Shown: one piece after another, positions 42,563 to 64,000 of the stretch
How positions within the stretch are numbered: the first letter of the stretch is position 1
How the letters are laid out: each line of letters begins with the position of its first letter
DNA from: Candidatus Woesebacteria bacterium UBA5941
GTDB lineage: Bacteria; Patescibacteriota; Microgenomatia; UBA8517
Length of the DNA: 64,000 nucleotides
Assembly: GCA_002430735.1 (NCBI GenBank)
Contig: DJCV01000012.1
Coordinates: 1,390 to 65,389, forward strand
Direction: 5' to 3'
Notes under the pieces: model-generated
What the model saw: the letters and a program-made list of their open reading frames with translations, nothing else
Told to the model about the DNA's origin: nothing
Databases searched by the model: none
Translations under genes and position numbers: made by a program

Positions 42563-42565
42563 AAA

Positions 42566-42590
42566 GACCGGGGTATAAGCCCGGCTTTTG
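42566..42590. terminator. Short GC hairpin with flanking T-tracts (bidirectional intrinsic terminator candidate)
   Basis: CCGGG(42568-72) gtataag CCCGG(42580-84) followed by CTTTT; reverse complement followed by TCTTTTT. Confidence 0.4.
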
Positions 42591-42602
42591 CCACGATTTA
42601 CT

Positions 42603-42826
42603 CTATGGCAATAATATGTGTGCGGCGAGATTTACCGCCTCTTCAATATCTGTAGACTTCCACAGCTTAAACGGAGCGGCTTCTCGAACAAACAAATGAT
42701 TGTGAACATTGTTCGGCTCCATTAATAGAATTACCGGAGTTCTAGCTTCATATGCCCAGGCTAATTCAAAACATGTACCAAATATACCATTGGACGATGA
42801 ATGAGTCTCAGTGGTTGTGTCTCCAC
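42603..42826 (-). pseudogene. Gene remnant with nucleoside 2-deoxyribosyltransferase-like C-terminal motif, frameshifted/N-terminally truncated
   Basis: Minus strand has AGGAGG-N7-GTG then a 21-codon frame ending in TAG; the +1 frame continues a protein-like sequence ...NGIFGTCFELAWAYEARTPVILLMEPNN...AVNLAAHILLP (resembles DSGTxFELGxAxAxGKPVI of the Nuc_deoxyrib_tr fold) with no start codon. Confidence 0.3.
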
Positions 42827-42922
42827 AGTGTATCCTCCTTACATTATCGATACAGGGTTATACCTGAGGCGCGCGCAGTTTTCATAACCTCAAAGCCTGT
42901 AAGAAATACGTAAGATTTCCCC

Positions 42923-42951
42923 TTGACGTGTCCGTGAAAACACGTCAAAAT
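42923..42951 (+). promoter_or_regulatory. Candidate mraZ promoter (TTGACG-17-CAAAAT) overlapping a palindrome TTGACGTGT-N8-ACACGTCAA
   Basis: -35 TTGACG 42923-42928; weak -10 CAAAAT 42946-42951; perfect 9-bp inverted repeat 42923-42931/42940-42948. Confidence 0.35.
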
Positions 42952-42976
42952 GGTGAAGATTGGTGACAAATGGTGA
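42951..42976 (+). promoter_or_regulatory. Three direct repeats TGGTGA with exact 10-bp period immediately upstream of mraZ (MraZ-box-like operator)
   Basis: TGGTGAagatTGGTGAcaaaTGGTGA at 42951, 42961, 42971; MraZ proteins are known to bind triple direct repeats at 10-bp periodicity in their own promoter. Confidence 0.55.
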
Positions 42977-42979
42977 AAT

Positions 42980-52323: not shown

Positions 52324-52998
52324 TTAGAGAGAAAGCTCCATATTAGTCATTGAAAGTTCGTGAACCTCGTACTCTTCAAAGTTCACTTCATCAAATGCTT
52401 TTTTGACCTCCGCACGTGGGTCAAAGTAGAAATATTGATGGCTTATACGCCAACCGTAAAAGTAATACCCATGTTCAATATGTATTACGATCCGGTTTCC
52501 ATCATCAAATTCTACATTTAAACTTATAAGCGGGTCTTTCTGATCCACGCTTTCGTTCATTGCATGTTCGATTGCTACCTGCCGGGATTCAAATTGTTTC
52601 ACATCGTTTGAGTTAAAACCGTTCCAGTTCCAGGGTGACAGCATGACGTTCATTGTTGCATTCGGATCAGACATGATTTTTCTCACTTTTTTGTCTATGG
52701 CTCGATCCTTTAATATTTGGATTCGAACCGTTAAATGAATATTGCCGTACGCCATAACGAGCTTTGAATGGTCGTTGCCCCAATCCTGTTTCTCAGGGTC
52801 GGAACTTTGCCATGAAACCTGAACTTCATTCAGGTGATTCAAGACAACTAGCTCTACAGCGTCTGCAAATGGTTTTAATGCAAGGGTTGTATCGATCTCT
52901 TGACCGTAACCCGAGCTTGCAACCAGCTTCGCAGCTTGTTGATAATTCCATGCTATTTGCATGAGGGTACCAACACCCTGTTTTGCTTTGTTAGCCAT
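52324..52998 (-). CDS. Hypothetical protein (224 aa), operon partner of PIF1-like helicase
   Basis: ORF track; strong SD AAGGAG 8 nt upstream of ATG on minus strand; no recognisable motif. Confidence 0.6.
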   Translation of the reverse strand: MANKAKQGVGTLMQIAWNYQQAAKLVASSGYGQEIDTTLALKPFADAVELVVLNHLNEVQVSWQSSDPEKQDWGNDHSKLVMAYGNIHLTVRIQILKDRAIDKKVRKIMSDPNATMNVMLSPWNWNGFNSNDVKQFESRQVAIEHAMNESVDQKDPLISLNVEFDDGNRIVIHIEHGYYFYGWRISHQYFYFDPRAEVKKAFDEVNFEEYEVHELSMTNMELSL

Positions 52999-53121: not shown

Positions 53122-53267
53122 ATTAAGTGAGAATGTGCTGTCTGTGTAAACGTGCGAATCTTTCTAAGCGTAGGTACGAGAGCATTGTTTGTGCGCTTGT
53201 ATCTAGGCTCAAAATTCACTTAATTACGGGAGATTTTCCGAGGTATTAGTTCTTTACTAATATGAAT

Positions 53268-53296
53268 ACTATAGCATTAAAAAGACACTTTGTCAA
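53268..53296 (-). promoter_or_regulatory. Near-consensus sigma70-type promoter on minus strand (TTGACA-17-TATAGT)
   Basis: Plus TGTCAA 53291-53296 is minus-strand TTGACA; plus ACTATA 53268-53273 is minus-strand TATAGT; 17-nt spacer; drives hypothetical+helicase genes with about 260-nt leader. Confidence 0.5.
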
Positions 53297-60046: not shown

Positions 60047-61237
60047 ATGGCGCTTGTTAAACCTGACGCAAGTCGAATTGCAAAAATCAAAGTTATTGGA
60101 GTTGGTGGTGGTGGTGGAAATGCCGTCGCTTCAATGGTTGAAGGAAACACTATTGCTGGTGTTGAATTTATCGTCGTCAATACTGACGCACAAGTACTTC
60201 TTGATAATACAGCTACTACAAAACTTCAAATTGGTGAAAAGCTAACTCGTGGACTCGGTGTCGGGGGAAATCCAGAAGTTGGATCTCAAGCAGCAGAAGA
60301 ATCCCAAGAAAAAATCAAAGAACTCCTTCAAGACTCAGATATGGTCTTTATCACTGCAGGTATGGGTGGTGGAACCGGAACCGGTGCGTCTCCAATTGTT
60401 GCGCGCTTAGCGAAAGAGGTAGGTGCATTGACTGTTGGTATTGTCACAAAGCCATTTGCATTTGAAGGTGCACGACGTGCTAACAATGCGGAAGATGGAA
60501 TCGATCGATTACGCGATGAAGTTGACACGTTGATTGTTATTCCAAATCAACGACTTATGGATGTGGTTGATCGAAAGATGACCTTAGTTGAAGCATTCAA
60601 GATTGTTGATGGCGTTTTGGGTCAAGCAGTGACAGGTATCGCTGAAATTATCACAACTCCTGGACTTGTGAACGTTGACTTTGCTGACGTAAAGACCATC
60701 ATGAAAGACGCTGGAACGGCTTTATTGGGTATTGGAGTTGGTGTTGGAGAAAACAGAGCTCAAATGGCTGCTCGAGCTGCTATCAGTTCACCACTTCTTG
60801 ACCTTTCAATCGATGGAGCTCGTGGAGTGCTCTTTAATGTAACCGGTGGATCTGACTTAACGATGTATGAACTTGATGAGGCTGCACGCATCATTAGTAG
60901 TGCAGCAGACCCAGATGCAAACGTTATTTTTGGATCTGTTATTAAGACCGATATGTCAGATCAGGTGAGAATTACCGTTGTTGCAACTGGATTTGATGAA
61001 ACACAAGCTCGATTGACTAAGTTTGGTCGCCCTGTTGAGCCACAACGAATGGAAGGCATGGTCGGGGATCCTCGCCCAACGGTGAGCGCAAGCGAACCAC
61101 AGGAAGAACGACAACAAGAAGAGCAACCACGCTCAGTTTTCAGTAACCAACAGCCAGTAAATCAAGCTCAGCCTGAAGAAAAGGATGAATTTGGGGATGA
61201 TTTTGAAATCCCAGCCTTCTTACGCAAGGTGCATTAA
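60047..61237 (+). CDS. ftsZ: Cell division GTPase FtsZ
   Basis: [14 protein letters not shown], tubulin signature [10 protein letters not shown], conserved C-terminal peptide [11 protein letters not shown]. Confidence 0.9.
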
Positions 61238-61250
61238 CACCTATAATACT

Positions 61251-61278
61251 TGACAAACAGAGTAGTTCTGCTATACTG
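61251..61278 (+). promoter_or_regulatory. Near-consensus sigma70-type promoter TTGACA-16-TATACT
   Basis: TTGACA 61251-61256, TATACT 61273-61278, 16-nt spacer, 14 bp after ftsZ stop. Confidence 0.55.
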
Positions 61279-61284
61279 CTTTCA

Positions 61285-61851
61285 ACTCGTTACACATTAA
61301 CGAGCTTGATGCGTCCCGCTCTGTGGGATGCCTGCTTGAAAGACAATTTGCGTTTTTACCTAGCGAGCACTGTGTTTAAGTACACACCACTTGCGGGACG
61401 CTATCATTTTGCTCATTACACAATCATTCGTTGTGGCAACCTAAAAGGATATACCTTTTTGTATCTTTCTAGTTTGCCATTCAACACGGTCATCCGTTAA
61501 TCTGGTCCCCCTCAGGGACCCCCACCAGATTATCCGGAACCCTGAAAACTCATCCTTTAGCGCTGAGGTGTAGGCTACCATGGATGGATGAGTGAGACTT
61601 GATACCGCGGCGATGGATCATACCAGTGCACAATGTGTACGTATGGGGTCCGTCTAGGTGCGGGCGGTATTCCCAGAGCACTGGTACTAGTCTCATGTTG
61701 ATGGCGGGCCCACGTTGGATGGGAGTAGCGTAAGCGACCCTGCTCCCAAACACGGGGTGTTCTTTTAAATAGGTCCAAGGAGGTGACTCATTGGACAATG
61801 AATATTAAAAGGGGTGAAGCGTTAAAAACTTCACCCCTTATTTACCCTTTT
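61285..61851 (+). ncRNA. Candidate structured non-coding RNA of about 560 nt with GC-rich 3' half, ending at intrinsic terminator
   Basis: Follows promoter; 5' hairpin CTCGTTA-cacat-TAACGAG; long-range perfect 9-bp pairing GCGTCCCGC (61311) with GCGGGACGC (61394); 61501-61680 is 55-57% GC by hand count against a visibly AT-rich background; ends at hairpin GGGGTGAAG-N9-CTTCACCCC plus TTATTT; no convincing ORF. Confidence 0.4.
61811..61851 (+). terminator. Intrinsic terminator (9-bp GC-rich stem plus interrupted T-tract)
   Basis: GGGGTGAAG 61811-61819, loop cgttaaaaa, CTTCACCCC 61829-61837, then TTATTTACCCTTTT. Confidence 0.55.
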
Positions 61852-62182
61852 GACCTTCGTAAACAGGGCACCTATCTGGTGCCCTCTTTAAGGAGGCCAA
61901 TCCGTTCAAAAGCACATCTAAATTGTTAGAAAAGAACTTTTGAAAGAGACAGGCATTGTGCCAACAGATTGTTGCCTCCTTTCCTTAAATAATTACTCGC
62001 ACATAGTTGCGAATAAAAGAGACAGTAAGACATTTGGGATGTCAGAGCGGTACCAATACCGCGCGCGCGTGTCTTACCGGTCGGTATGTGAATGGGAGAA
62101 ATCCCCCCTTTACGAGGCGACAGACCCAGTCGCCTCTTTTTTATGGCCAAAAAATAAGAAACAGTGTAAAATACGCTCACAG
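61852..62182 (+). promoter_or_regulatory. ileS 5' leader of about 330 nt, riboswitch/attenuator-like (possibly a divergent T-box)
   Basis: Second hairpin GGGCACC-tatct-GGTGCCC; AGAGA-containing helix GAAAGAGACAGGCA...TGCCTCCTTTCC; CGGTACC...TACCGCGCG resembling T-box core GGGUGGUACCGCG; alternative pairings CGGTACC/TACCGGTCGGTA; terminator immediately before ileS. Confidence 0.35.
62115..62142 (+). terminator. Strong intrinsic terminator/attenuator 41 nt upstream of ileS start
   Basis: GAGGCGAC 62115-62122, loop agaccca, GTCGCCTC 62129-62136, then TTTTTT 62137-62142. Confidence 0.7.
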
Positions 62183-64000
62183 ATGTCTACTAAATCTTCA
62201 TTTAAGCCTGTTGACCTGCAAGTGAATTTTCCTGAAATGGAAAAAACGCTCTTGTCCCATTGGTATGACTCAGGAATTGTGAATAAATATCTTCATAAAA
62301 ACGACGAATCAGAGAAGTATTTCTCATTTCTCGATGGACCGATCACTGCAAATAACCCAATGGGTGTACACCATGCGTGGGGGAGGACGTATAAGGACTT
62401 ATGGCAAAAGTACCACAACATGAAAGGATACAAACAGAGATTTCAAAATGGATTCGACTGCCAAGGTCTCTGGGTTGAAGTAGAAGTTGAGAAAGAATTG
62501 GGTCTTCATAACAAAAAAGATATTGAAAACTTGGTTCCAAATGACAAAAAGGAAAGTATCGCTAAATTTATTACTCTCTGCAAAGAGCGAGTCTTAAAGT
62601 TTTCTGGTATTCAAACTGAACAAACGAAACGTCTTGGTAACTTCATGGATTGGGAAAATTCATACTTCACGATGTCCGCTGAAAACAATTACATGATTTG
62701 GCATTTCTTGAAAAAATGTCATGAACGTGGGCTTATTTACAAAGGCCATGACTCAGTTCCGTGGTGCCCACGCTGTGGTACTGCAATTTCTCAACATGAA
62801 ATGCTCACTGAAGATTACAAAGAGGCGGTTCACGAATCAGCATTCTTGGCGCTTCCTGTAACGAATGAAAACTATTCATTACTTGTGTGGACCACAACTC
62901 CATGGACAATTCCTGCAAACGTCGCTGTCGCGGTGCACCCTAATTGGACATATCAGGTGTGGGAAAACACAGAAACGAAAGCAAGAATTGTTTTACTCGA
63001 TAGTGGTGATTGGGAAGGGTCAGTGGATATTGCAAAACGTGTGTTTGGCTTCGTAAAAGGGGACTGGACCAAAGGAGAGACGATAAAAGGTTCAGAGTTA
63101 CTCGGAAAGAAGTACCGAGGTCCGTATGACCATGTAGACGCTGTAGCGAAAGCACAAAAGGAACATCCAGAGACATTTCATACTGTTATTGCGGCCAAAG
63201 ATTTAGTGACTCCTCATGAAGGAACAGGCTTAGTTCATATAGCTCCTGGTGCAGGAACAGAAGATTTTGCGTTAGGAAAAGAATTTAATCTGCCAGTTGT
63301 TGCACCAATTGATGAAGAAGCGAGCTATGTGGATGGATTTGGAGAGCTTTCAGGACAAAATGCAAAAAAACATCCTGAAATTATCCTCGATTACTTGAAA
63401 ACGACTGAATTTTTCGTTGCATCTCACCAATACAAACACCGCTATCCAGCATGTTGGCGATGTAAGACTGAGCTTGTGTGGCGCGTTGTTGACGAATGGT
63501 ACATCGGAATGGACATCGGAACCCCGTCGCTTCGAGAAGACATGATTGAGGTTGCAAAGAAAATCACTTGGATGCCAGAATTTGGACTGAAACGAGAGCT
63601 TGATTGGCTTGCAAATATGCACGATTGGCTCATTTCGAAAAAACGGTATTGGGGACTTGCCCTTCCAATTTGGGTATGTGGATCCTGCGATCACTTCGAA
63701 GTTATAAGCGGCAAAGAAGAGTTAAAAGAAAAAGCGATGAGTGGATGGGAAGAATTCGAAGGGAATACGCCTCATAGGCCATGGATCGATCAGGTAACTA
63801 TCAAATGTAGCAAGTGTGGAGGGGAAGCGCACCGTATTCCTGACGTTGGAAATCCGTGGCTTGATGCAGGGATTGTTCCCTACTCAACTATTATGAAAGA
63901 AAACACGGGAGATCCGTTATATCTCACTAATAGAGCAGAATGGGAAAAGTGGTTCCCGATTGATTTCATCACAGAAAGTTTCCCTGGACAGTTTAAAAAC
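62183..64000 (+). CDS. ileS: Isoleucine--tRNA ligase (N-terminal about 600 aa; runs off window end)
   Basis: Hand translation from ATG 62183: MSTKSSFKPVDLQVNFPEMEKTLLSHWYDSG...FLDGPITANNPMGVHHAWGRTYKD...WTTTPWTIPANVAVAVHP...PIDFITES; open to window end; not in ORF track because it has no stop in window. Confidence 0.75.
   Translation, partial: MSTKSSFKPVDLQVNFPEMEKTLLSHWYDSGIVNKYLHKNDESEKYFSFLDGPITANNPMGVHHAWGRTYKDLWQKYHNMKGYKQRFQNGFDCQGLWVEVEVEKELGLHNKKDIENLVPNDKKESIAKFITLCKERVLKFSGIQTEQTKRLGNFMDWENSYFTMSAENNYMIWHFLKKCHERGLIYKGHDSVPWCPRCGTAISQHEMLTEDYKEAVHESAFLALPVTNENYSLLVWTTTPWTIPANVAVAVHPNWTYQVWENTETKARIVLLDSGDWEGSVDIAKRVFGFVKGDWTKGETIKGSELLGKKYRGPYDHVDAVAKAQKEHPETFHTVIAAKDLVTPHEGTGLVHIAPGAGTEDFALGKEFNLPVVAPIDEEASYVDGFGELSGQNAKKHPEIILDYLKTTEFFVASHQYKHRYPACWRCKTELVWRVVDEWYIGMDIGTPSLREDMIEVAKKITWMPEFGLKRELDWLANMHDWLISKKRYWGLALPIWVCGSCDHFEVISGKEELKEKAMSGWEEFEGNTPHRPWIDQVTIKCSKCGGEAHRIPDVGNPWLDAGIVPYSTIMKENTGDPLYLTNRAEWEKWFPIDFITESFPGQFKN

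Follow-up and report, generated by a model that had tools for sequence, protein, structure and literature searches.

Candidate tandem structured RNA genes behind a strong promoter between ftsZ and ileS in a clade of Candidatus Woesebacteria

Introduction

Comparative genomics of long, GC-rich intergenic regions has brought to light a series of orphan structured noncoding RNAs (ncRNAs) in bacteria, such as raiA, ROOL, OLE and the motifs in the catalogues of Weinberg and Breaker. 6S RNA (ssrS) represents a family that sequence searches often miss, while multi-RNA precursors are known to be cut at long hairpins, as at the RNase III sites of ribosomal RNA (rRNA) operons and phage T7 early transcripts. 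Some ncRNAs are themselves controlled by riboswitches, an example being the B12 riboswitch upstream of EutX/Rli55. In this report, we compare with these systems the spacer between ftsZ and ileS in Candidatus Woesebacteria bacterium UBA5941, a member of the Patescibacteria or candidate phyla radiation (CPR) with a genome of ~942 kb. The spacer lies in a stretch of 64,000 nucleotides of contig DJCV01000012.1 (hereafter the window), and positions 61251-61851 are the interval of interest. This interval is probably a genuine noncoding transcription unit, in which two adjacent structured RNA genes, here called RNA1 and RNA2, lie behind a very strong sigma-70-type promoter. The best-supported reading of the locus as a whole is an island of three structured RNA genes in tandem, strongly promoted and confined to one clade; the interval would hold the first two, and a third, RNA3, would follow before ileS.

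CPR genomes are extremely compact, and very few of their ncRNAs are known. A sequence-only reading of the interval had proposed one structured ncRNA of ~560 nt with a GC-rich core; its observation is confirmed here, and its interpretation is partly supported. Our literature search found no description of this locus. Comparative-genomics pipelines of a related kind are described in PMC8723152 and PMC11109978.

The ftsZ-ileS Spacer and Its Promoter

The ftsZ gene occupies 60047-61237 and the ATG of ileS lies at 62183, both assignments being confirmed by NCBIfam. The window is densely coding, mainly on the + strand, and the gap of 945 nt between the two genes is more than twice as long as its next-largest intergenic gap. 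GC content per 100-nt window amounts to 51-60% over 61500-61800 (~54% overall, against a window mean of 41%), so the GC-rich segment described earlier is real. When 61284-61850 is folded and compared with shuffled sequences, z reaches -5.85 for the + strand and -4.71 for the - strand, the chief sources of this signal being the 5' part and the terminal hairpins. A replication origin was considered and dropped, since no GC-skew switch occurs at the locus.

61250-61277, + strand: promoter P1, TTGACA-16-TATACT with a TG extended -10, matching 11/12 consensus positions

Promoter P1 has the sequence and spacing previously reported, and begins 12 nt, rather than 14, past the ftsZ stop codon; its predicted transcription start is ~61284. 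Only three promoters as near to consensus, P1 among them, occur on both strands of the window (128 kb of strand), and a TTGACA/TAnnnT pair stands ahead of RNA1 in every relative.

RNA1, a Three-Way Junction Supported by Covariation

The first predicted RNA comprises the following elements.

61284-61410, + strand: RNA1, ~125 nt, a 5' hairpin followed by a three-way junction
61286-61304, + strand: 5'-terminal hairpin CTCGTTA-CACAT-TAACGAG (arms 61286-61292 and 61298-61304)
61311-61401, + strand: RNA1 core, the three-way junction, from the RNAalifold consensus of four close sequences
61311-61319 with 61393-61401, + strand: helix P1, the closing helix of 9 bp, perfect GCGTCCCGC/GCGGGACGC
61329-61336 with 61362-61369, + strand: helix P2, of the UGAUUUCU/AGCGGUCA type, with two conserved tandem U.G pairs
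61344-61352, + strand: loop CAAUUUGCG of the apical hairpin P2b, presenting the conserved AAUUUGC
61371-61375 with 61382-61386, + strand: helix P3, from the RNAalifold consensus
61402-61420, + strand: RNA1 tail, conserved UAUCAUUUU...GCUCAUUACAC after helix P1, U-rich

The short 5' hairpin and the perfect 9-bp long-range helix had both been noticed from the sequence; both are present, and the latter turns out to be the closing helix of a fold that covariation supports. A first covariance model, built from the four close sequences, found L173, a non-training member, at E 1e-8 (loci of relatives are denoted by L and a number), and a second model, run with filters off, matched L009 (5.5e-5), L086 (8e-4) and L008/L174/L175 (~3e-3). 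Every match sits where a consensus promoter predicts the RNA start. None of 148 ftsZ loci from more distant relatives gave a match, and the window has no second copy. In an alignment of nine sequences, few and related and fitted to the model, 88% of cells are paired compared with ~42% (range 36-46%) when the partners are slid, and double (compensatory) changes occur in 21/31 pairs, including all 12 pairs of helix P1; these pairing values were reached by 0/500 shuffles. The RNA1 alignments include indels whose lengths are not multiples of three, as befits a noncoding sequence. The relatives carry a 5' hairpin of other sequence, with a CCAAA-type loop, at the equivalent site, and a UWUCA tail follows helix P1 in all lineages; in the window, the tail may serve as a weak stop or processing region. 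An outer 3-bp helix found no support in the alignment, and the sequence of the P3 hairpin is not conserved among relatives.

Given these alignments, we regard RNA1 as a real structured RNA whose family is new to Rfam. The conservation of its loop and junction suggests that RNA1 specifically recognizes a protein, an RNA or a ligand; the complement of the loop, CGCAAATTG, was not enriched in a target search. Readings of RNA1 as a hammerhead, 5S or SRP-like RNA (SRP, signal recognition particle) fail by eye because the core motifs of these RNAs are not conserved.

RNA2, a Probable Second Gene Opening with a Long Hairpin

Downstream of RNA1, the interval contains a 20-bp hairpin, the GC-rich region and a 3' end with a terminator.

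61435-61478, + strand: H0, a hairpin of 20 bp whose 5' arm is rich in purines and whose 3' arm is rich in U, the conserved 5' module of RNA2
61479-61772, + strand: GC-rich body of RNA2, lineage-specific, with an excess of perfect stems
61498-61506 with 61524-61532, + strand: H1, perfect stem
61548-61555 with 61586-61593, + strand: H2, perfect stem
61593-61599 with 61689-61695, + strand: H3, perfect stem
61602-61608 with 61664-61670, + strand: H4, perfect stem
61621-61629 with 61678-61686, + strand: H5, perfect stem
61721-61747, + strand: H6, a GUAA-capped hairpin
61773-61796, + strand: Hx hairpin, GUCCAA/UUGGAC, whose loop holds a perfect Shine-Dalgarno-like AAGGAGGUGA at 61777-61786
61809-61851, + strand: terminator T1, a 12-bp hairpin (61809-61839) followed by AUUUACCCUUUU

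H0 is kept in L166 and L173, and across these three sequences 93% of it is paired, with double changes in 5 pairs and with invariant G.U and U.G pairs, the latter supporting the + strand. A conserved GCCAUWCRA stands directly 3' of H0, and hairpins resembling H0 were recognized by eye in L086, L009, L174 and L175. In L173, L086 and L009, an 11/12 consensus promoter is found between RNA1 and the H0-type hairpin, H0 of L173 lying just 3' of it. These promoters indicate that H0 and what lies downstream form a separate gene, RNA2, which in the window, L006, L007 and L166 would share promoter P1 with RNA1. Conservation is recognisable at the 3' end of RNA2 as well, which consists of Hx, an AU-rich linker and the terminator; a hairpin occupies the Hx-equivalent site in L006, L007 and L173, and canonical + strand terminators occur at the T1-equivalent site in L006, L007, L166 and L173.

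The body has five perfect stems of 7-9 bp (H1-H5), and the crossing of H4 and H5 inside H3 makes a pseudoknot possible. All the complementary pairs listed in the sequence-only reading are present in the core (ACTCATCC/GGATGAGT, ATACCGC/GCGGTAT and GGTCCC/GGGACC), along with two further 9-bp pairs, TAATCTGGT/ACCAGATTA and TACCAGTGC/GCACTGGTA. Perfect inverted 7-mers number 10 in the core, with 1.7 expected and none of 300 shuffles reaching 10.

RNA3 and the Promoter of ileS

The remainder of the spacer appears to hold a third RNA.

61846-61904, + strand: C-hairpin, 22 bp, UUGACCUUCGUAA...UUAAGGAGGCCAA, which opens RNA3 just outside the interval of interest
61905-62142, + strand: RNA3 body, several hairpins, with terminator T2 at 62114-62142
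62144-62185, + strand: ileS promoter and ATG, with a conserved GTGTAAAAT -10 and the ATG at 62183, a block kept in all relatives

In nine instances of the C-hairpin, 89% of cells are paired and 13 pairs show double changes; its score is 69 bits on the + strand and 36 bits on the - strand, and it is single-copy in the window. The conserved G.U pairs of RNA1, H0 and the C-hairpin fit the + strand only. RNA3 shares partial sequence conservation with L007 and L166, and has its own consensus promoter in L173 and L086, each of which displays three promoters of 10-11/12 within ~1.1-1.4 kb, all on the + strand. TTGACC...TATCTG in the C-hairpin is itself promoter-like.

Distribution among Relatives

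Synteny of ftsZ and ileS is widespread in Woesebacteria and Microgenomates, where mostly a gap of 20-100 nt or protein genes separate the two. The long, ORF-free (ORF, open reading frame), promoter-rich spacer is restricted to a clade whose FtsZ is ~80% or more identical to that of the window, as a lineage-specific element would be; its members are the window, L006, L007 (=L167, L168), L166, L173, L086 (=L171), L009 and the L008/L087/L174/L175 group. The order of RNA1, long hairpin, body and terminator is constant in all lineages. RNA1 is ~70-76% identical between genomes whose bodies are non-homologous. The gene after the spacer varies: in L007 it encodes a class I synthetase, a paralog with 31% identity to IleS, and in L006 a 355-aa protein.

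L006 and L007 have one body in common, and likewise a C-type 5' hairpin, whereas L166, which is equally related (FtsZ 95-96% identical), has an H0-type hairpin and an unrelated body, so at least one replacement event is implied. Most other unalignable blocks need no special mechanism, since coding DNA in the compared pairs is just 77-85% identical. Cassette swapping between identical strains, for which L174 and L175 were considered, was rejected: the two have the same FtsZ protein, but their DNA is just ~85% identical, and ordinary divergence accounts for most of what does not align.

Two additional features were seen at the 5' side of the locus in relatives. L008 (3068-3260) and L174/L175 (3686-3860) have an extra hairpin-rich block of ~190 nt, situated between the ftsZ stop codon and the RNA1 promoter, which other lineages do not have. 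In L009 (4187-4285) and L170 (3730-3906), a small hydrophobic ORF (e.g. MKIFAKFLTIISLLVLVLSVIFGVYLLLSSVN) comes right after ftsZ, ahead of the RNA locus or replacing it.

A Proposed Model of the Locus

In the window, promoter P1 would drive RNA1 (~125 nt) and RNA2 (~400 nt) as a co-transcribed unit. In RNA2, the conserved 20-bp H0 would be followed by a GC-rich body of several hairpins, specific to the lineage, and then by the conserved 3' hairpin and the intrinsic terminator; RNA3, opening with the 22-bp C-hairpin, would come next before ileS. RNA1 is presumably the sequence-constrained functional core, acting via its conserved loop and junction, and the GC-rich body seems to be under selection for stable structure (or GC) rather than for sequence. 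H0 and the C-hairpin might be RNase III-type processing sites or elements protecting the 5' ends, which would separate or stabilise the individual RNAs. The RNAs could then act in trans, as stable RNAs or as components of ribonucleoproteins.

A bolder version of the model can be offered only as speculation, and we consider it quite unlikely. Here, the RNA system of the locus would be modular: conserved handles (the RNA1 junction, H0 and the C-hairpins) would flank structured bodies that diversify fast and are swapped or replaced between close lineages, and RNA1, as a sensor or a binding site for protein, would gate the variable RNAs or act as their partner. If this were true, the pattern would be the one expected of roles in conflict or recognition (phage, episymbiont-host interaction), not of housekeeping.

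That a promoter-rich noncoding locus of ~1 kb has been retained beside the division genes implies a function that justifies the space it takes up in the genome. As a new RNA family, RNA1 offers a covariance model that is usable across CPR genomes and metatranscriptomes. Bodies that are structured, GC-rich and non-homologous, set between conserved ends, form an evolutionary pattern that is unusual and could indicate a modular or diversifying RNA function.

Weight of the Evidence and Alternative Readings

Several observations weigh against the proposal of two structured RNA genes in the interval. The intrinsic terminator claimed for its end has a strong 12-bp hairpin, but its U-tract AUUUACCCUUUU is imperfect on the + strand, and the terminator scan scored T1 on the - strand only. 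The covariation of RNA1 comes from the fitted alignment of few, related sequences, and helix P3 is missing in three lineages. The GC-rich core alone folds weakly, with z for minimum free energy (MFE) between -1.6 and -2.3 for the + strand (- strand, -0.5 to -0.6), and its stems are all Watson-Crick, without G.U, as would also be compatible with young palindromic DNA. No homolog of the body was found by blastn or nhmmer in 175 loci, including genomes with 90-92% identical FtsZ; the comparative alignment of the spacer that had been suggested yields covariation for RNA1 and H0, and the stems of the window body are predicted from its one sequence. Besides the identical sequence, the protein collection holds no FtsZ that is 90-100% identical to that of the window. 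Matches of 10-14 nt between the body and L086 or L173 were judged to be chance, as they are non-collinear. No partner protein or target of the RNAs was found, and the proposed action in trans and the roles given to H0 and the C-hairpin are the most conjectural steps of the model.

These points bear most directly on an alternative in which just RNA1 and the junction hairpins are functional and the GC-rich core is filler, for example recently acquired or palindrome-rich DNA with quick turnover, which we consider somewhat unlikely. The absence of sequence conservation in the body between lineages with 90-96% identical FtsZ, the weak MFE signal and the perfect stems of the window body, and a body length that ranges from 150 to 400 nt across lineages would all be explained in this way. 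Filler accords poorly, however, with the behaviour of the bodies as a set: in 7/7 lineages the + strand fold beats shuffles (z -1.5 to -4.4) and always beats the - strand, 6/7 bodies exceed the local GC average, and the bodies of L006 and L007 are conserved with each other, with compensatory changes. Together, these three observations give indirect support to the bodies as structured RNA. Moreover, these genomes otherwise hold their intergenic gaps very short, the body is not a dispersed repeat within the window, and it has no match in phage or plasmid collections, nor do two exact 22-23-mers of it match viral contigs. A dispersed repeat or MITE (miniature inverted-repeat transposable element) was rejected, because the spacer is unrepeated in the window and the C-hairpin is single-copy.

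The single RNA of ~560 nt, a molecule built from RNA1, H0, the GC-rich core and the 3' hairpin as its domains, is unlikely in our judgement. It agrees with the constant order of the modules in all lineages, and with the window, L006, L007 and L166, in which P1 is the sole promoter and no clear terminator lies between RNA1 and H0. The separate RNA2 promoters of L173, L086 and L009 speak against it, as do the terminator-like hairpins after RNA1 in L173 and the finding that the core, which the sequence-only reading had placed at the heart of the molecule, is the least conserved part, with bodies non-homologous where RNA1 is not. The reading of the interval as two adjacent RNA genes accommodates both sets of lineages, as RNA2 either shares P1 or has its own promoter.

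A highly divergent universal RNA (6S, RNase P, transfer-messenger RNA (tmRNA) or SRP RNA) that escapes the Rfam models in CPR bacteria is very improbable. The lengths of RNA1 and RNA2 (~125 nt and ~400 nt) roughly fit such RNAs, as does the strong promoter. The 4227 families of Rfam 15 were searched at the gathering score over the whole window and at E <= 10 over 61100-62300; the former search found no family and the latter only chance matches of sRNAs on terminators. The 6S covariance models gave no match in either search, nor in relatives, and the 6S-like character once considered for the interval is further contradicted by its three-way junction and separate hairpins. The signatures of RNase P, tmRNA and SRP RNA had been sought in vain by eye, and are indeed lacking: the P4 core motifs of RNase P, GGAAAGUCC ... 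ACAGAA/GGCUUA, are absent from the interval, which has no Rfam match to RNase P; SRP RNA (4.5S) has no Rfam match in the window or relatives; and ARAGORN detected no tRNA or tmRNA in the window and was negative in 10 loci. Among 26 related loci, Rfam produced nothing but one sub-threshold match of alpha_tmRNA to the RNA3 region of L173 (4666-4804; 26.7 bits, gathering score 50, E 2e-4), which was judged spurious, as it is limited to unpaired flanks of the model and passes over 237 structured positions. Universal RNAs are marked by conserved cores, yet RNA2 is unalignable between near relatives, and the ftsZ neighbourhoods of more distant relatives lack RNA1.

A cis-regulatory leader of ileS (T-box, riboswitch or attenuator) might be expected directly upstream of an aminoacyl-tRNA synthetase gene and with terminator hairpins, but this reading is largely refuted by the present evidence and has next to no probability. 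T1, T2 and a conserved separate promoter intervene. A conserved GTGTAAAAT/GTGTACAAT -10 box lies ~10 nt ahead of the ATG, without a Shine-Dalgarno sequence, in ileS (62164-62185) and in the replacement genes of L006, L007, L009, L086 and L166, so that the mRNAs of all these genes are apparently leaderless. Such a -10 box, together with a downstream gene that differs in L007 and L006, argues that the spacer is not a leader of ileS, and T-box and riboswitch families gave no Rfam match up to E = 10.

Small proteins are scarcely credible either. A gene caller (JGI) predicts an 82-aa ORF on the - strand (61550-61798); a perfect Shine-Dalgarno-like motif stands 11 nt ahead of an ATG at 61798, and a 43-aa ORF follows AAGGAGGTGA. 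Pfam has no match in 8 spacer ORFs, and an all-against-all comparison of spacer ORFs revealed none conserved across lineages, the similarities being just 11-29 aa and scattered over frames and both strands; the 43-aa ORF runs through the terminator, and in L006 a stop codon and a 1-nt indel interrupt it. The earlier statement that the interval has no credible ORF holds, and the leader, universal-RNA and small-protein readings are largely excluded by these tests. Perfect Shine-Dalgarno-like motifs, AAGGAGGTGA (61777-61786) and TTAAGGAGGCC (61888-61897), occur inside hairpins without a conserved ORF downstream, and similar purine-rich arms recur in relatives.

Other Intergenic Features of the Window

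The second-largest gap in the window (42563-42979, 418 nt) has a terminator, GACCGGGGTATAAGCCCGGCTTTT, at its start and a hairpin, GACGTGTCCGTGAAAACACGTC, within it. On the - strand, a near-consensus promoter, TTGACA-17-TATAGT (53260-53296), is followed by an untranslated leader of ~270 nt (to 52999) and a 224-aa gene (52998..52324); this may be another cis-regulatory or noncoding RNA.

Comparison with Known Systems

Like riboswitch-controlled ncRNAs of the EutX/Rli55 type, the locus places a conserved junction RNA right after the promoter, followed by a noncoding RNA instead of an ORF, and in L086 the hairpin that comes after RNA1 is followed by a U7 run. It differs in that the analysis identified neither a ligand nor an alternative pairing or expression platform and no riboswitch family matches, while in L173 RNA1 has its own downstream terminators.

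With 6S RNA it would have in common a sigma-70-driven, stable noncoding RNA, high expression being suggested here by the promoter sequence. 6S RNA is a rod of ~180 nt with a central bubble, whereas RNA1 is a three-way junction of ~90 nt and RNA2 a string of hairpins, and, unlike 6S RNA, these RNAs have no Rfam match and no sequence conservation beyond a narrow clade.

As in precursors cut by RNase III, long hairpins (20-22 bp) that include conserved mismatches or wobbles stand exactly where one predicted RNA of the transcription unit gives way to the next. The difference is that in some relatives the hairpins are simply the 5' ends of separately promoted RNAs.

The closest resemblance in kind is to the orphan ncRNAs raiA, ROOL and OLE, with which the locus shares a long intergenic position, GC content above background, its own promoter and terminator, and a fold supported by covariation. 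It departs from them in having no match to the Rfam families, in being confined to one genus-level clade of Woesebacteria, and in the tandem arrangement of three RNA genes. Furthermore, its large GC-rich part is the non-conserved part, which teaches that the most eye-catching portion of such a locus can be the least conserved.

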